Assembly (NCBI GenBank): GCA_016184005.1
Contig: JACPDL010000003.1
Coordinates: 171,632-235,631 of the forward strand
Direction of reading: 5' to 3'
Length of the DNA: 64,000 nucleotides
From: Candidatus Aenigmatarchaeota archaeon
GTDB taxonomy: Archaea > Aenigmatarchaeota > Aenigmatarchaeia > GW2011-AR5
A program made the translations under genes and the position numbers. The notes beneath the pieces are model-generated. The model did no database searches. It was not told the origin of the DNA and saw only the letters and a list, made by a program, of their open reading frames with translations. Positions 1,774 through 61,561 of the stretch are shown here, piece by piece. The stretch's first letter is position 1. Each line of letters begins with the position of its first letter.

Positions 1774-3288
1774 TTACTTGAAGAACTTTCTGAGTGCGGG
1801 ATGCATGTCTTCTGCGTAGCGCATCGCGATCTGTTCGTACATGTTGTGGATGATCGATACTGTCAGCAGGATGCCTGTTCCGGTGCCTACGGCGCTCGTG
1901 AAATCAGCAATGGCTGCGATAAGGCCGATTATGAGGCCGCTGAGTACTGTAAGTATTGGTATGTATCTGTCAAGCACCTGCCCCACGATGCGCGGGTCGC
2001 GGCGGAAGCCGGGCACTGACATGCCCATGTCATTTATCTGCTCGGCAACGGCACGGGAGTCCATGCCGCTTGTTGACACCCAGAAAATCGAAAATACTAC
2101 AGAACCAACAACGAACGCAGTCAGGTAGACAAGGGCGTTAAGCGACGCTGCCGCTGTAGGCAGCCCGATGGAAAGGTTTGTTACAAGAACTGCAAGAACA
2201 AACCCCACGATAATGGAAGCAAGCAGAACCTTAAGCGCATTCTGGTATTTCAGGTAGAATGCAAGGAAGCCTGCCGCGAACACAACAGCAAGAAGTATCA
2301 TGAAGAAAATCTGCGTCTGCAGGTCACCCGGCGGGTTCAGGAACGAAATAATTCCGCTTACGGGTAAGCCGTTCGTATCTATGCAGCCCAGGAAGCCGCA
2401 ACGCAACCCGCTTTCGGTAACCCTTGAAGAGAGTGTTGCCATGAACTGGAGGTTTGCTATCAGCGCGCCGACAAGTATGACGGGTATGTTGCTTGTGTAC
2501 ATCAGGTTCAGCGGCCATCTTCTGGAATAACCCCTGACCGACGCGAACGCTATTGGTATCTCAACGCGTATTGCCTGGATATACACAACAATGAGAAACA
2601 CGATTATTGTCGCAATGATAGGCAGCAGCGCAATGAAAGCCTGGAAGACCTCGCCCAATGTCATAAATGTGAAAAACTGCAGCAACAAACCGGCAGGAAC
2701 AGTCTGGCCTTCGGGAGTAATCGGGTTGAAAATCCTGACAAATATCTGCTTTGATACGCCGGCTGCTATGAACAGCGATACGCCCGAGCCTATGCCCCAT
2801 TTCGACACTATCTCGTCCATGTAAAGTACAAGCACGCCGCCAAACGCAATCTGTGCTACTAATAAAAGGAACATATCAGGCGACGCAGGCGGCAATGCAC
2901 CAAAAGCTACGAAAGCGTAAGCTTCAAAGATCGAAAAGAATATTGCAAGGAGTTTTTGCGTTCCCTGGAATCTCTTTTTGCCCTCCTTGGATTTTGTGTC
3001 CCATGACAGGATCTTTGAACCAACCAGCAACTGCAATATTATAGACGATGTTACTATCGGGCCTATGCTGAGCGTCATCAAAGTGCCAAGCGATGCGCCC
3101 AGTATGAGCTCAAAGAACTGCAGGCGCGGCAGCGCTCCTGCTGAAAGCCCGTAAAGCGTTATCTGCCCCAGGAGAAGGAATATCAGAAGTACAAGCGCAG
3201 TCCACTTGAGGCGGGTGATGAAATTGAGATGTGTCTTAGGCTCCTCAATTCCGGGCAGGCCTGAAACAAACTTGTCGTAAAAGGACAT
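1774..3288 (-). CDS. secY: Preprotein translocase subunit SecY/Sec61-alpha
   Basis: 504 aa, 10 TM helices, conserved SecY motifs; sits at the distal end of the r-protein cluster as in archaea. Confidence 0.9.
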   Translation of the reverse strand: MSFYDKFVSGLPGIEEPKTHLNFITRLKWTALVLLIFLLLGQITLYGLSAGALPRLQFFELILGASLGTLMTLSIGPIVTSSIILQLLVGSKILSWDTKSKEGKKRFQGTQKLLAIFFSIFEAYAFVAFGALPPASPDMFLLLVAQIAFGGVLVLYMDEIVSKWGIGSGVSLFIAAGVSKQIFVRIFNPITPEGQTVPAGLLLQFFTFMTLGEVFQAFIALLPIIATIIVFLIVVYIQAIRVEIPIAFASVRGYSRRWPLNLMYTSNIPVILVGALIANLQFMATLSSRVTESGLRCGFLGCIDTNGLPVSGIISFLNPPGDLQTQIFFMILLAVVFAAGFLAFYLKYQNALKVLLASIIVGFVLAVLVTNLSIGLPTAAASLNALVYLTAFVVGSVVFSIFWVSTSGMDSRAVAEQINDMGMSVPGFRRDPRIVGQVLDRYIPILTVLSGLIIGLIAAIADFTSAVGTGTGILLTVSIIHNMYEQIAMRYAEDMHPALRKFFK

Positions 3289-3301
3289 TTTGTACCCTCA
3301 T

Positions 3302-3562
3302 CTAACATTTAGGAATAAGAGGTATAACGTAATCAATATCTCTTGTTTGTATTGGTACCACATCTCGCGGTTTTTGATTTTCATCTAAACAATGATAAAA
3401 CTCGACAAATGCTGGAGCCACTTCTACAACTCTTCCTAAATATCCAGCTATAGTCTCAAACTTTCCCTCTTTGTTTCTATGTCTAACTTCTACTAATCCA
3501 GCCGTCTGCACTACTCTTTGAATGTCTCTAAGTCTGCTCAATTCCATATTTACACTGACCAT
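3302..3562 (-). CDS. Hypothetical 86-aa protein inserted between L15 and SecY
   Basis: Intact ORF in the operon orientation, tight spacing; no recognisable family. Confidence 0.35.
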   Translation of the reverse strand: MVSVNMELSRLRDIQRVVQTAGLVEVRHRNKEGKFETIAGYLGRVVEVAPAFVEFYHCLDENQKPRDVVPIQTRDIDYVIPLIPKC

Positions 3563-3564
3563 TT

Positions 3565-3969
3565 CTATTCTACTATGACTCCGCCGGCCTGCTCTATCTT
3601 TTCTTTGGCCTTCTTTGAACAGCTGGGAATTCTCACTTTGACGGCAACGTTGATGGAACCTTTTGAAAGAAGTTTCTGGTAACCCATTGAAGACAGGTCA
3701 ATAACTTCCGCATGTTCCTGCACTGAAAGAATCTTTTCCACGTCACCGACATTGATTATTTTCATGGATTTCTTGTTGTGCCTTACAAAACCTTTGTATC
3801 CGTAGTGCTCCGGCTCGTAGTTTACAATATACGAATACTTGTGCTTGTGCGAGCCGCCGTAACCGCGCCCGCCCTTGCTGCCTTTTCCGCGGTGTTTCTT
3901 CTTCGAGCCCCAGCCGTGGGTATGCGTACCTCTCTGTCTTGTATCCTTTTTCCTGAAGCGTAGTGTCAT
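3565..3969 (-). CDS. rpl15: 50S ribosomal protein L15 (uL15)
   Basis: Gly/Lys/Arg-rich N-terminus (GSKGGRGYGGSHKHK), position before SecY. Confidence 0.8.
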   Translation of the reverse strand: MTLRFRKKDTRQRGTHTHGWGSKKKHRGKGSKGGRGYGGSHKHKYSYIVNYEPEHYGYKGFVRHNKKSMKIINVGDVEKILSVQEHAEVIDLSSMGYQKLLSKGSINVAVKVRIPSCSKKAKEKIEQAGGVIVE

Positions 3970-4337
3970 TCTTTAACCCTCATCTTTGCATATCTCTTCC
4001 ATTCCATGAGCCTCAGGCCGCCGTTATATCGCTCCTCCAGCAGTCTTGCTGTCGCTTCCGGCATCTTCAGGTCCTTCCGGCCCAGGCCGCCCTTTGCGCC
4101 TTTCTTCCTTGCAAACCTGTATACCTCTCTCGGATTCAGGGCAGAAAAATGATGGGTTCTTTCATCAACAAAAGATTCAGTCGGTTTCTTCTCGTATCTC
4201 AGGACGAGTTTCTCATGACCGTTCATGTCAACAAAGACAGTCCTTTTTTCATCTGCTCGTGTTTCCGTGGTGAAATAACCGAGAAAGCCAAAATCACTGG
4301 CAGGCTTCAGGAAAACCTTGTACTCGGGCATTTTCAC
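3966..4337 (-). CDS. Hypothetical 123-aa protein inserted between L30 and L15
   Basis: ORF overlapping neighbours by 4 bp on both sides (translational coupling); no family recognised. Confidence 0.4.
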   Translation of the reverse strand: MKMPEYKVFLKPASDFGFLGYFTTETRADEKRTVFVDMNGHEKLVLRYEKKPTESFVDERTHHFSALNPREVYRFARKKGAKGGLGRKDLKMPEATARLLEERYNGGLRLMEWKRYAKMRVKE

Positions 4338-4669
4338 AGCATCCTCTTTATGAGATCATTTATGTTGTTTCCGCGATAACCGAGATCGCCTTTTGGCCAG
4401 CGTTTCTTCAGTGTCTTGAACCCGCCCCTTGGCGGAGCAAGCCGGTACACGTTGCCTTTACCTTTTTCTTTCAGCATCTCAAGCAGATCCCCGCTTGCTT
4501 CTCCCCACGTAACGTAGTCTTCTGATTTCTTTATCATGCCCACAATTTCCGATGATTTTGGCACGAGTGCGAGCGCGTGTTTCGTATGCAGGCCAAGCAT
4601 GCGCATCGTGCGCTCTACGTCTTCCCTTACGCCAATCCTTCCACGCACGCGCAAAACAGCCAATTCCAT
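4334..4669 (-). CDS. rpl30: 50S ribosomal protein L30 (uL30)
   Basis: LAVLRVRGRIGV...TMRMLGL motif of uL30; follows S5. Confidence 0.8.
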   Translation of the reverse strand: MELAVLRVRGRIGVREDVERTMRMLGLHTKHALALVPKSSEIVGMIKKSEDYVTWGEASGDLLEMLKEKGKGNVYRLAPPRGGFKTLKKRWPKGDLGYRGNNINDLIKRML

Positions 4670-5386
4670 CTATCGCACCTCTTCATTTATTTCTTCAGGC
4701 TCTTCAGCAGCTTCAACGACACGCTTGGCTTCATTCTCGCTGTGAATCTTCATCTTGTTTATCTTCTTGAACGCATCAAAAACTGCAAGAGTATAATTCA
4801 TCCGGGTTCGCGGATCGCCGAAAGTCTTTGACCATATGTCCCTGATGCCAGCAAGACGCATTATCTTCTTGCCTTCATCATAAACTGCAAGGCCTATTCC
4901 TTTTGGCGCAGGCATCAGCGTAACCTTAACGGATCCCGACTTGCCCTGGATCTCTACAGGTATTGAATGCTTTCCGCCGCAGGAGCACTCCCATGAGCCG
5001 CAGCCGCGCTTTACTGGTATGATATTGAGCTTCGCAGCTTCGGATGCTTTCTCTGTTGCAACCCTGTGTTCCTGGGCTTCTGATTTTCCAACGCCAAAAT
5101 ATCCATCTCCGTTGCCAACCACCACCAGGGCTGAAATCTTGAACCGTCTTCCTGACCTGTGCATTCTTGCTGTTCTCCTTGTAGATGTTCTTTTTATGCC
5201 GCCGCCTTTTCCCGGTGTTCCGCCTATGAAAATTATATCGCTTTGCAGGTTTGGCAGCAGCTTGTCAACGATCTGCGGCTCTTTTATCTTCCTGCCGCTT
5301 GCAAAAACCTCGTCAAGCGTGGCTACCTTGCCATCAAGCACCAGTTTTCCAAGCTCTGTTTTGGGTTTCCAGTTTTCAGTTGACAT
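4670..5386 (-). CDS. rps5: 30S ribosomal protein S5 (uS5)
   Basis: dsRBD plus S5 C-terminal domain motifs (GRRFKISALVVVGNGDGYFGVGKSEA). Confidence 0.9.
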   Translation of the reverse strand: MSTENWKPKTELGKLVLDGKVATLDEVFASGRKIKEPQIVDKLLPNLQSDIIFIGGTPGKGGGIKRTSTRRTARMHRSGRRFKISALVVVGNGDGYFGVGKSEAQEHRVATEKASEAAKLNIIPVKRGCGSWECSCGGKHSIPVEIQGKSGSVKVTLMPAPKGIGLAVYDEGKKIMRLAGIRDIWSKTFGDPRTRMNYTLAVFDAFKKINKMKIHSENEAKRVVEAAEEPEEINEEVR

Positions 5387-29397: not shown

Positions 29398-29508
29398 GGG
29401 CTCGTGGTCTAGTGGAATGACGCGACGTTCGCAAAGAGGAGAAATATGTATCTCTCTCAAAAATATTGAAATACGTCGAGGCCGGGGGTTCGAATCCCCC
29501 CGAGTCCA
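29398..29508 (+). tRNA. tRNA-Ala (anticodon CGC) with a ~39-nt intron at/near position 37/38
   Basis: Acceptor GGGCTCG/CGAGTCC with G3:U70 Ala identity pair; anticodon stem CGACG/CGTCG; loop TTCGCAA; T-arm GGGGGTTCGAATCCCCC; discriminator A; CCA not encoded. Confidence 0.8.
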
Positions 29509-42599: not shown

Positions 42600-45227
42600 A
42601 TGGAAACGGAAGAGAAGATAAAATCAAAATTCAGGCTGAAGAAGCTTGTGAACATGCTGCAGGCGATCAAAGGCAGGCATACAGAGCTTGTAACGGTCTA
42701 TGTGCCCGTGAACTACTTGCTCAGCGAGATTATCAGCCAGCTCCGGACAGAACAAAGCACCGCGGAGAACATAAAATCAAAACCAGTAAGGAAGAACGTG
42801 ACAACGGCACTGGAGAAGATAATCAGGCACCTGCAGCTCTACAAACACACGCCGCAGAACGGCATTGCGCTTTTCTGCGGCAACGTGAGCGATAAAGAAG
42901 GCGCGACGAATATAGAGATCTGGGCAGTAGAGCCGCCCGAAGAGATAAAGGTCAAGATGTACTGGTGCGACCAGAGGTTCGTAATGGATCCCCTGCTCGA
43001 CATGGTAGAAGAGAAAGAGATATACGGTGTCATCTGCCTTGACAAGAGCGAAGCAGACATCGCTTTGCTGAAAGGCAAGAAGCTTGAACTGCTTTACCGC
43101 AAGGAATCCATAGTCCCTGGTAAAACGCGCGCCGGGGGACAATGCCTGGCACCGGATACCCTCATACAGATGGGTGATGGAACTTTATTGGAAATATGTA
43201 AAGTCAGCAATCCCCATATAGTCAAATCTGTAAATTTCCCAGAAACAACCCTGAGCAACAGGCCGGTAATAAACAAATGGGAAACAAAAAAGAATACAAA
43301 ATACATAATAACAACCAAATGTCCTGCCACACAAATCGAATCTTCAAAAGATCACCTATTCTTCAGGTGGGGAAACAGTATAGAAGAGATTCCGGCAGAA
43401 AAGCTGAAGAATGGCGACTTTCTATTGCTGCCTGAAAAAATAGATGTAGAAGGCGAAATACAAAGTTTGAATAGCTCAGGCTTTTACAATTCATACAGGA
43501 TAAGTGAAAAAGGAAGAGAATATATTAAAAACAGAAGAATTTCATTAAAATTATTGCAGAAAGAATTGGCCAAAAAATCAGGTGTAACACAGACAGCAAT
43601 ATCAGTGATAGAGCTTGGAAAAAGGGATATAAAAATTGGATTTCTGAAAGTCTTGTGCAAACATCTTGGTACAGAAACAGGCTCTTTCATACGCCAGTTC
43701 TGCGTGCCAGTCAAAGATCTTAAACTGCCTGAAGTTCTGAACGAAAATCTGGCAAGTTTTCTAGGCTACTTTGCCGGAGACGGCTCTATAGAGAATGAAA
43801 GATTGTCGCTATTTGATGCTGACAAGCAGACGATTGAATATTACAACAACTTGGCAGAAATCACATTCAACTGCAACTCGAAAATCACGCATAGAGAAAA
43901 CAAGGGACATTATGTTGCCAGAATATATGGCAAACCTATTGTAAAACTGATAAAAAATGAATTTCCGGAACTAAAATACGCACTGGATACTGAAATGCCG
44001 GCTAAAATACTCAAATCACCTGATAGCGTACTTGCTGCATTCTTGAGGGGGTTTTTTGATGCCGAAGGCTACGTAAACAGGGAAAGGGGGATAGGTCTGG
44101 GGATAAATAACAAAAAAATGGCCAGGCAAACGCAGCTGGCTTTGCTCAGATTCGGGATATTAGCATCGCTTGCAGAATACGACAACAGGAGAAATCCTCA
44201 CAGCAAAAAACACAGGTTTACGGTAGGAATAACAGAAAGAACGTCACTAGAAATATTTCTGAACTCAATAGGATTTAATGCGGCTTATAAAAACAAAAAG
44301 CTGGCAGAAGTCATCCAAAATAAGTCAGTAACAAGCTATACAAGACAAATATTTCTGACGGGAGAAAATATAAGAAAAATACTTGAGTCAGAAGGCTACA
44401 AGGTGTCGGACTTTCCAAAAGTTACCAATTTCTTCAGAAATGAAAGGCTGATGAGTAAAGACGTATTCAGAAATTCCATAATAAATGAGGTTAGAAACAA
44501 CGAAAGCCTGAGGAAAAAACTCGAAATAGTATTAAATTATAACCTAGTACCTGCAAAAATAAGCTCCATAAAGAAAATAGAAGAGGAAAACAGGTTCGTT
44601 GATATAGAAGTTAAGAATTCCAATTTCATTGCAAACGGTATTGTAGTCCACAATAGTTCAGCACGTTTCTCACGCGTGCGCGAGGGCATGCTCAACGACT
44701 GGCTGAAAGAAGTGGGCGAAGCCGCGAACAAGATCTTTGAGGAGCACAAAGAGGTCAAGGGCATACTTCTGGGAGGGCCTGGACCAATAAAGGAATTCTT
44801 TCTGAAGGAAGAGTACGTTCATGCAGACGTGAGGAGCAAAATACTTGGAACTGTTGATACGGGCTATACAGGAGAACATGGACTTGAAGAAACACTGATA
44901 CGGGGGGAAGATTTGATAAAAGAACTGGCAGTCACGAAAGAAAAGAATCTTCTGCAGAAATTTCTCACAGAGCTTCAGAAACCGCATGGAATTGCAGTTT
45001 ACGGCGCCAAGGAAGTGATACGCGTGCTTGAGCTGGGCGCGGCAGAAACTATAATCATAAGCGAGAGCATCAGCGAAAAAATAGAAGGGGAAGACGCCAT
45101 AGAATATTTCGAGGAGAAAGCGCAAAACTACGGCACCGCGCTTATTGTTGTTTCATCAGACACGCGCGAAGGCCAGCAGTTTAAAGCCCTAGGCGGCATC
45201 GGGGCGCTGTTGAGGTATCATGTGTAG
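42600..45227 (+). CDS. prf1: Peptide chain release factor aRF1, interrupted by a 504-aa intein
   Basis: NIKS motif, GGQ motif, aRF1 domain 3 after the intein; exteins total 371 aa. Confidence 0.8.
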   Translation: METEEKIKSKFRLKKLVNMLQAIKGRHTELVTVYVPVNYLLSEIISQLRTEQSTAENIKSKPVRKNVTTALEKIIRHLQLYKHTPQNGIALFCGNVSDKEGATNIEIWAVEPPEEIKVKMYWCDQRFVMDPLLDMVEEKEIYGVICLDKSEADIALLKGKKLELLYRKESIVPGKTRAGGQCLAPDTLIQMGDGTLLEICKVSNPHIVKSVNFPETTLSNRPVINKWETKKNTKYIITTKCPATQIESSKDHLFFRWGNSIEEIPAEKLKNGDFLLLPEKIDVEGEIQSLNSSGFYNSYRISEKGREYIKNRRISLKLLQKELAKKSGVTQTAISVIELGKRDIKIGFLKVLCKHLGTETGSFIRQFCVPVKDLKLPEVLNENLASFLGYFAGDGSIENERLSLFDADKQTIEYYNNLAEITFNCNSKITHRENKGHYVARIYGKPIVKLIKNEFPELKYALDTEMPAKILKSPDSVLAAFLRGFFDAEGYVNRERGIGLGINNKKMARQTQLALLRFGILASLAEYDNRRNPHSKKHRFTVGITERTSLEIFLNSIGFNAAYKNKKLAEVIQNKSVTSYTRQIFLTGENIRKILESEGYKVSDFPKVTNFFRNERLMSKDVFRNSIINEVRNNESLRKKLEIVLNYNLVPAKISSIKKIEEENRFVDIEVKNSNFIANGIVVHNSSARFSRVREGMLNDWLKEVGEAANKIFEEHKEVKGILLGGPGPIKEFFLKEEYVHADVRSKILGTVDTGYTGEHGLEETLIRGEDLIKELAVTKEKNLLQKFLTELQKPHGIAVYGAKEVIRVLELGAAETIIISESISEKIEGEDAIEYFEEKAQNYGTALIVVSSDTREGQQFKALGGIGALLRYHV
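43143..44654 (+). mobile_element. Intein with LAGLIDADG homing-endonuclease domain inserted between Q and S of ...RAGGQ|SSARF...
   Basis: Begins with Cys (CLAPDT), ends with HN followed by Ser; LAGLIDADG blocks LGYFAGDGSI and LRGFFDAEGYV; embedded HTH. Confidence 0.75.
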
Positions 45228-61376: not shown

Positions 61377-61561
61377 GCCGAGGTAGTTCAGCGGTAGAAC
61401 GCCACGCTCATAAAGGCTTTTCTTTTAAAAAAGAAAACCCTGGAAAAGAAACAGAAATAAAAATTGGAAAGAAAACTTTCAAGAATTATGAGCTTTGAGA
61501 TGCTTTGCATCAGTGATAATGAGAAACGTGGAGGTCGTGAGTTCGAACCTCATCCTCGGCA
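61377..61561 (+). tRNA. tRNA-Met (anticodon CAT, elongator-type) with a ~113-nt intron (61414-61526)
   Basis: Acceptor GCCGAGG/CCTCGGC; D-arm GTTC-AGCGGTA-GAAC; anticodon stem CCACG/CGTGG; loop CTCATAA; T-arm GTGAG-TTCGAAC-CTCAT; discriminator A. Confidence 0.7.

Follow-up and report, generated by a model that had tools for sequence, protein, structure and literature searches.

The window analysed here, a stretch of 64,000 nucleotides (nt) from a Candidatus Aenigmatarchaeota archaeon (assembly GCA_016184005.1, contig JACPDL010000003.1, positions 171,632 to 235,631 of the forward strand), encodes an archaeal release factor, aRF1, whose catalytic GGQ motif is directly followed by an insertion of 504 amino acids (aa). 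We read this insertion, with a probability of about 0.9, as a genuine class-1 intein that resides in the housekeeping aRF1 of an uncultured DPANN-type archaeon and is probably still mobile. Positions 42600..45227 (+) form one uninterrupted open reading frame (ORF) of 875 aa, as seen from the ORF listing and its translation, and the insert occupies residues 182-685 (nt 43143-44654), between GGQ and Ser. Its first residue, Cys182, starts at nt 43143, and its last residues, NGIVVHN, end at aa 685 (nt 44654), where the host sequence resumes with SSARFSRVRE. The residue at position -1 is thus the catalytic Gln of GGQ, and that at +1 the conserved Ser of the GGQS motif. Once the 504 aa are removed, the remaining 371-aa extein aligns without gaps across the junction (GGQ/S, the slash marking the insertion point) with the aRF1 of Halobacterium (4af1) and Aeropyrum (3agk) and with eukaryotic eRF1. 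A natural intein-free orthologue (P0268) is 371 aa long like the spliced product, and 89% identical to it. The initial annotation, made from the letters of the sequence, had placed a 504-aa intein at 43143-44654 directly after GGQ; the translation returns precisely these coordinates, and the alignment with intein-free aRF1 upholds the exact junctions.

The Host Gene

The initial annotation had also named the host protein as an aRF1 with NIKS and GGQ, and the profile searches agree. The precursor matches the Pfam families eRF1_1, eRF1_2 and eRF1_3 above their curated cut-offs (E 1e-13 to 1e-27), domain 2 being split by the insert, and passes the NCBIfam aRF1 equivalog model TIGR03676 (382 bits versus a cut-off of 234.7). 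The three-domain eRF1 architecture can be followed in the sequence through the motifs NIKS, YxCxxxF (YWCDQRF) and GGQ. The N-extein (aa 1-181; 42600..43142, +) comprises domain 1, with NIKS at aa 57-60 (nt 42768-42779, +), and the first part of domain 2, and it ends with GGQ (nt 43134-43142, +; codons GGG GGA CAA) as the last residues of VPGKTRAGGQ (aa 172-181; KTRAGGQ, aa 175-181). The C-extein (aa 686-875 and the stop codon; 44655..45227, +) opens with Ser (AGT), the +1 nucleophile within GGQS, and holds what remains of domain 2 as well as domain 3.

The aRF1 gene lies just downstream of the gene for valyl-tRNA synthetase (ValRS), with a small ORF of the F420-ligase family between them, and in intein-free relatives aRF1 is found directly downstream of ValRS. 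This common synteny argues that the interrupted gene is the housekeeping copy and not a stray paralogue; neither a second aRF1 nor a pelota gene was found in the 64-kb window. The exact 875-aa protein is present on 7 public contigs, including Logan assemblies of at least three sequencing runs (SRR12113425, SRR12113428, SRR12113432), and since the same protein is recovered from independent runs, it is not an assembly artefact of the window.

Intein Anatomy and Splicing Domain

The whole class-1 intein (43143..44654, +, in frame) runs from Cys1 (TGC) to Asn504. It begins with the N-terminal HINT half (residues 1-110; 43143..43472, +), which is beta-rich in the predicted model and carries block A (CLAPDTLIQMGDG) and block B (IESSKDHLFF). 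This half is followed by an HTH_3 domain, a helix-turn-helix (HTH) of the Xre/Cro type with five helices (residues 121-186; 43503..43700, +), which lies between the N-terminal HINT half and the LAGLIDADG endonuclease (residues 191-395; 43713..44327, +). A helical accessory domain (residues 396-465; 44328..44537, +) separates the endonuclease from the C-terminal HINT half (residues 466-504; 44538..44654, +), where block F (RFVDIEV) and block G (NFIANGIVVHN) are located. Every splicing block, A, B, F and G, is therefore present.

In an alignment of the window intein with 47 full-length homologues that are 41-95% identical (48 sequences), the invariant residues are Cys1, Ser68 and His71 of block B, Gly212-Asp213-Gly214, Asp487 of block F, and His503-Asn504 of block G. 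The initial Cys, the final His-Asn and the +1 Ser, all three named in the initial annotation, are read directly from the sequence, and the former two are among these invariant positions. The splicing domain is recognised by Pfam (Intein_splicing, E 5e-16) and by the NCBIfam model intein_Cterm (TIGR01443), above its cut-off. Block B reads S68-K-D-H71, that is SxxH in place of TxxH, with both residues invariant in the family. Ser-for-Thr variants of block B occur in other inteins, and we take this one to be a conservative variant, not a loss.

The AlphaFold2 model of the intein (pLDDT 93.6, pTM 0.92) matches solved inteins over the whole length of the latter, in agreement with a HINT fold. In the Foldseek comparison with the PDB, the top matches are the TliVMA intein (7qss; E 6e-25, TM-score 0.75 on the target), PI-PfuI (1dq3), PI-TkoII (2cw7) and PhoVMA (7qst), with PI-SceI, I-DmoI, I-Tsp061I and WhiA further down.

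These results bear on a more trivial explanation, namely that the 504-aa insert is a lineage-specific domain that does not splice, or a chimera of sequencing or assembly. From what is known of eRF1 structures, a 58-kDa insert that stayed in the GGQ loop would obstruct the way to the peptidyl-transferase centre. No splicing block is missing and their key residues are invariant, the predicted fold is that of HINT plus LAGLIDADG, and the identical protein was assembled from several independent sequencing runs. Block conservation, fold and recurrence across runs thus rule this explanation out for practical purposes, and we regard it as extremely improbable.

A profile built from the intein family and run against all six-frame ORFs of the window recovered only one copy, the aRF1 intein itself. 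We also looked within it for a promoter or terminator that could serve a free-standing endonuclease, and found candidate sites no more often than in shuffled sequence, a negative of little weight for an archaeon, as the consensus used is of the bacterial type.

Endonuclease and Accessory Domains

The two LAGLIDADG motifs and the HTH that had been noticed inside the intein at the outset are both recovered by Pfam, as LAGLIDADG_3 in two stretches (E 3e-24) and as HTH_3. The first motif (LASFLGYFAGDGS) ends in GYFAGDG and contains Asp213, invariant in the 48 sequences; the second (LAAFLRGFFDAEGY) ends in GFFDAEG, with Asp306 and Glu308 conserved in at least 90% of them. The best match of the endonuclease domain among PDB sequences is the endonuclease of the TliVMA intein (E 5e-18), and in the model its core is laid out as alpha-beta-beta-alpha-beta-beta-alpha, duplicated.

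The HTH_3 match (PF01381) covers aa 309-360 of the full protein (E 1.4e-10, and 7e-12 when the domain is scanned alone), with scores of 41.5-45.6 bits against a cut-off of 23. The domain is modelled as five helices (residues 122-186), and its matches among PDB sequences include the 434 Cro and repressor proteins and the controller proteins of restriction-modification systems. It is probably a DNA-binding accessory domain of the Xre type. The second, helical accessory domain (residues 396-465) includes a strongly conserved FPKVTNFFRNERxMSK stretch, and no Pfam family matched it even at E values up to 10. Its position is that at which the TliVMA and PI-TkoII inteins have accessory domains (compared with PMC8966425).

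Selection and Horizontal Transfer

The intein differs in composition from its host gene, with a GC content of 37.4% versus 49.5% for the extein (45.5% for the window) and a GC content at third codon positions of 38% versus 59%. The closest relatives of the extein (89%, 82% and 73-74% aa identity), of which P0268 is the nearest, are all intein-free. The most similar intein is found elsewhere, in a protein (P0002) of GCA_053529655.1, and is 95% identical at the aa level, while the exteins of the two proteins are 67% identical. In DNA, identity is 95.2% between the two inteins, with a synonymous divergence (dS) of 0.16, and 66% between the exteins, for which dS is saturated. These distances show a recent horizontal transfer of the intein between diverged hosts.

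The same pair of inteins gives an overall ratio of nonsynonymous to synonymous divergence (dN/dS) of 0.14, and by domain 0.07 for the N-terminal HINT half, 0.19 for the HTH, 0.22 for the endonuclease, 0.13 for the helical accessory domain and 0.04 for the C-terminal HINT half. Since the ratio is low in all five domains, every module has been under purifying selection, including the endonuclease and the HTH.

Traces of the transfer may extend into the host gene. The first 17 nt of the C-extein (AGTTCAGCACGTTTCTC) are identical in both occupied alleles, that of the window and that of GCA_053529655.1, with AGT as the codon of Ser+1, and three empty alleles of closer relatives have TCC, TCC and TCA at this codon. 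The shared 17-nt flank is likely to be a co-conversion tract. One intein-less aRF1 allele (L076) illustrates what an unoccupied site looks like, with GTTCCTGGAAAAACACGTGCTGGCGGGCAA up to the GGQ and TCCTCAGCCAGATTTGCCCGCGTGCGCGAG from the Ser onward.

Distribution of Inteins at the GGQ Site

With the whole protein as query, 481 of the scored candidates matched at E<=1e-10. The best 120 of them are all 800-917 aa long and combine eRF1, intein and LAGLIDADG, nearly all of them with HTH_3, and their sources are labelled Aenigmarchaeota, Woesearchaeota or Nanoarchaeota. The junctions GGQ/C...HN/S can be read directly in 116 of these 120 full-length homologues, the other four being three false matches of the junction search pattern and one protein outside the pattern. 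When only the intein served as query, an exhaustive HMMER scan gave 78 representatives of clusters at the 50% identity level (E<=1e-30). The junction is shared by GTDB species genomes of Woese-, Nano-, Aenigmat- and Micrarchaeota, Candidatus Forterrea, Fermentimicrarchaeum and Nitrososphaerales. An intein at GGQ/S is thus common in uncultured DPANN archaea, and hundreds of such proteins are present in public databases. Their labels often follow the intein: NCBI names many of them 'helix-turn-helix domain-containing protein' or 'LAGLIDADG family homing endonuclease' (P0006, P0011, P0013, P0021, P0031, P0034 and others), and the pipeline of the Joint Genome Institute (JGI) labels some 'peptide subunit release factor 1 (eRF1)/intein/homing endonuclease'.

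The inteins at this site are not uniform. That of P0062 and a group of inteins of 421-434 aa do not have the HTH, and mini-inteins of 137-144 aa without an endonuclease occupy GGQ/S in Aenigmarchaeota-like aRF1 proteins of 504-540 aa (P0282, P0287, P0335, P0339 and P0344, and further P0354, P0358, P0368 and P0384). These mini-inteins start with CF and end with NFIANxLLVHN. We considered whether they might be decay products of the window intein, and rejected this idea, as in BLAST they are no closer to it than to the inteins of GlmS or Cdc48. From these sequences, more than one lineage of inteins seems to have settled at GGQ/S.

This diversity is relevant to the possibility that the window intein splices and its endonuclease is inactive, so that it would no longer be mobile but carried along by vertical inheritance, at a late stage of its homing cycle. 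Many endonuclease-bearing inteins are indeed inactive, for instance PhoVMA (PMC8966425), and the mini-inteins in related Aenigmarchaeota show that the same site can hold an intein devoid of this domain; they are, however, no closer to the window intein than to the inteins of other hosts, and so are not what remains of it after decay. The acidic residues of both LAGLIDADG motifs are conserved and the dN/dS of the endonuclease is only 0.22. The near-identical inteins in hosts whose exteins are saturated in dS, and the empty closest relative of the extein, also speak against it. We therefore consider an inactive endonuclease unlikely, and an intein that is probably still mobile the better reading.

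Other aRF1 genes outside the window deserve mention here. Two metagenome-assembled genomes (MAGs) of Nitrososphaerales/Thaumarchaeota (L022:1-3999 and L025:916-5283) encode an aRF1 with two inteins, one at GGQ/S and the second just before the Cys of the stop-codon-recognition motif YxCxxxF (YLYR/C...VHN/CDDHF). Inteins can thus enter aRF1 at no fewer than two sites, each of the two lying within a functional motif. A contig labelled 'uncultured Methanosarcinales archaeon' (L013) carries an aRF1 whose extein is of the Woesearchaeota type, with SEVPGKFKAGGQ upstream and SAQRFHRLIEGA downstream of the intein, identical there to L006; its Methanosarcinales label may be a binning error.

Relation to Known Inteins

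In its architecture the aRF1 intein resembles the VMA inteins TliVMA and PhoVMA (7qss, 7qsu, 7qst), PI-PfuI (1dq3) and PI-TkoII (2cw7), which likewise combine a HINT domain, a two-motif LAGLIDADG endonuclease and a helical accessory domain, and which are its best structural matches (Foldseek E 6e-25 to 7e-20) at a sequence identity of 14-20%. These known inteins interrupt the P-loop of the V-ATPase, ribonucleotide reductase and DNA polymerase, whereas the one described here sits in the GGQ loop of aRF1. Beyer and Iwai describe accessory domains in these archaeal inteins, placed after the endonuclease and before the C-terminal half of HINT, and note for TliVMA and PI-TkoII that they are similar to DNA-binding HTH proteins and have an influence on cleavage (PMC8966425). 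On the other side of the endonuclease, the connection with HINT in VMA inteins is an unstructured loop of 28-32 residues (PMC8966425), in place of which the aRF1 intein has an additional HTH_3 of the Xre type. As judged from sequence and model, it thus corresponds to a known architecture plus one extra Xre-type HTH in the position of the loop.

PI-SceI, the yeast VMA1 intein, also unites splicing and homing endonuclease in one protein, and an extra DNA-binding region on the N-terminal side of its HINT domain extends the recognition site (PMC8966425). This region differs from the HTH of the aRF1 intein in being an insertion into the HINT fold and not a Cro/C1-type HTH, and the structural match is weak (TM ~0.4). 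The bacterial transcription factor WhiA, also matched in the Foldseek comparison (3hyi, 8dy9), pairs LAGLIDADG and HTH as the aRF1 intein does, but it is free-standing and its LAGLIDADG domain is degenerate and has lost the catalytic acidic residues that the aRF1 intein keeps. As for the host, a parallel is the aIF2/IF-2 intein listed by Novikova et al. (2016; PMC4760082), which likewise lies at a conserved functional site of a core factor of translation, although in a different protein. The intein part of the window protein has a weak local match to the NCBIfam model of intein-containing IF-2 (PRK14845).

More distant relatives of the intein, 23-32% identical over the full 504 aa, are found in GlmS, RadA, Top6A, aCPSF/beta-CASP nucleases and Cdc48. 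They share the same order of HINT-N, HTH, LAGLIDADG, helical domain and HINT-C and the same NFIANG..HN/S ending, and they come from Asgard and DPANN archaea and, in the case of GlmS, from bacterial Omnitrophota and members of the candidate phyla radiation (CPR). LAGLIDADG inteins with an HTH occur in Top6A (L024), RadA (L028) and a beta-CASP/MBL nuclease (L040), the latter being an exception in that its HTH follows the endonuclease instead of preceding it, while the inteins of GlmS (L027, L031) and Cdc48 (L043) have no Pfam HTH match and an HTH-like stretch is discernible by eye only. The GlmS inteins of Omnitrophota and of a CPR Kerfeldbacteria MAG (L027, L029, L031, L033, L034) are ~25% identical to the aRF1 intein, those of L027, L031 and L034 over the full 504 aa; they have the same domain order and reside at GIGH/C...SHN/SRW, which we take to be the site where a Methanocaldococcus intein is already known. 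Their occurrence in these bacteria means that the intein family spans ultrasmall archaea and ultrasmall bacteria.

Another possibility is that the intein has been co-opted by its host as a conditional switch, with a redox, temperature or other cue gating the supply of release factor; once excised, the intein with its HTH might in addition regulate by binding DNA. Such co-option would be compatible with a mobile class-1 intein, as an added layer. Splicing would be obligatory for the integrity of the GGQ loop, the HTH_3 is conserved across the family and under purifying selection, and regulatory splicing has been proposed for other archaeal inteins such as that of RadA (PMC11409957). However, the HTH is dispensable, being absent from P0062 and from the 421-434-aa inteins at the same site, and the accessory domains studied in PI-SceI and TliVMA serve DNA recognition and cleavage (PMC8966425). 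The intein is also distributed patchily, its closest relatives by extein having empty alleles, and this speaks for a selfish element rather than a selected regulator. Patchy spread and the existence of HTH-less and mini-intein variants therefore fit a selfish element better, and co-option as a switch seems distinctly unlikely to us. A more far-reaching version of this idea, in which termination of translation is gated post-translationally by the intein and the conserved HTH, itself under purifying selection, gives the excised intein a DNA-binding regulatory role, we hold to be very unlikely; if true, the rate of splicing would set the supply of active release factor in a genome-reduced archaeon with an apparently single syntenic aRF1.

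A Putative Sister Clade of aRF1 Without the Catalytic Glutamine

Outside the window, we encountered intein-bearing aRF1 proteins in which W, M or F replaces the Gln at position -1 (L019, L030 at 2458-5013, and L058, as well as ten cluster representatives). The 120 closest homologues of the L030 extein (P0388-P0507) contain 119 that match the motif pattern, with GGW in 107, GGM in 11 and GGF in 1, and one that falls outside it. These 119 non-GGQ proteins are all intein-free (for example P0390 at L083:6001-7215 and P0404 at L085:6001-7218) and ~400 aa long, and many are labelled as aRF-1 of Aenigmarchaeota. Their NIKS, YxCxxxF and GRHTE motifs are intact, P0390 is a strong match to TIGR03676, the W codon is TGG, and the residue at +2 is Gln in 85/119. 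In GCA_016180965.1 a GGW gene occupies the same position in the order ValRS, aRF1 ... TatD as the GGQ gene of the window, and for this reason looks like the orthologue of the window's aRF1. Taken by their sequences, the GGW, GGM and GGF proteins appear to form a large sister clade of aRF1. We found no mention of a GGW-type aRF1 in the literature. To our knowledge, class-I release factors are held to share the Gln of GGQ universally, and this is why the clade deserves attention of its own.

Other Features of the Window

Two full-length tRNA matches to Rfam (52 bits each) lie at 29398-29508 (+) and 61377-61561 (+) of the window. Their spans of 111 and 185 nt both exceed the 71 positions of the model, implying insertions of ~40 and ~110 nt, which are presumably archaeal tRNA introns; ARAGORN reported no tRNA gene across the window.

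Proposed Mechanism

Translation would yield a single 875-aa precursor with the intein lodged in the GGQ loop of domain 2. Splicing by HINT would then proceed through an N-S acyl shift at Cys1, transesterification to Ser+1, cyclisation of Asn504 and a final O-N shift, joining Gln181 to Ser686 and restoring the GGQS peptidyl-tRNA hydrolysis loop. As this loop would be rebuilt only by splicing, release-factor activity should depend on it. Because the Gln of GGQ is the -1 residue of the intein, any modification of it by a methyltransferase of the Mtq2 type would presumably follow splicing. The excised intein would act as a monomeric, two-motif LAGLIDADG homing endonuclease that cuts intein-less aRF1 alleles around the GGQ/S codons, and repair from an occupied allele would copy the intein into the cut one. 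Most likely, the Xre-type HTH and the second helical accessory domain add DNA contacts in this process.

Several points weigh against this interpretation. Splicing and cleavage are, for every member of the family, predictions from sequences and models. The dN/dS values derive from one pair only, with 73 differences, and the argument from co-conversion rests on two occupied and three empty alleles. Block B has a Ser, invariant across the family, where Thr is usual. Finally, another aRF1 gene, free of an intein, may lie outside the visible 64 kb.

Novelty and Significance

The initial annotation had supposed that the GGQ of aRF1 was not a catalogued intein site. This is borne out in part, since we found no description of an aRF1 or eRF1 intein in the full text of 7.7 million PMC articles and 0.34 million bioRxiv preprints; in public databases the site is abundant and in part automatically labelled by JGI. 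Components of translation and transcription contain few inteins according to PMC4760082, in whose main text aIF2 is listed and no release factor. Inteins are not mentioned in a survey of release factors (PMC6514570), no release-factor intein is described in PMC10710043, and the one paper in which inteins and eRF1 of a genome are both mentioned, on the giant virus BsV, deals with them as separate matters (PMC5871332). Among the NCBIfam matches of the window protein, the 'intein-containing' exception models are those for GyrA, RtcB and a radical-SAM protein, with none for aRF1. Mechanism and architecture are thus known, and the insertion site at the GGQ of aRF1 appears to be undescribed.

With this finding, the list of known intein insertion sites grows by a translation-termination factor, split at the motif of its catalysis. 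A near-identical intein in two hosts whose exteins are saturated in dS, combined with closer relatives whose alleles are empty, offers a clean natural example of recent transfer among uncultured archaea. The natural variants at one fixed site, with HTH, without HTH and as mini-inteins, provide material on the part that accessory domains play in the recognition of homing sites, and the family may supply new splicing or meganuclease scaffolds. Where the essential release factor is hidden under the name of its intein, aRF1 can look absent from reconstructions and surveys of DPANN genomes.

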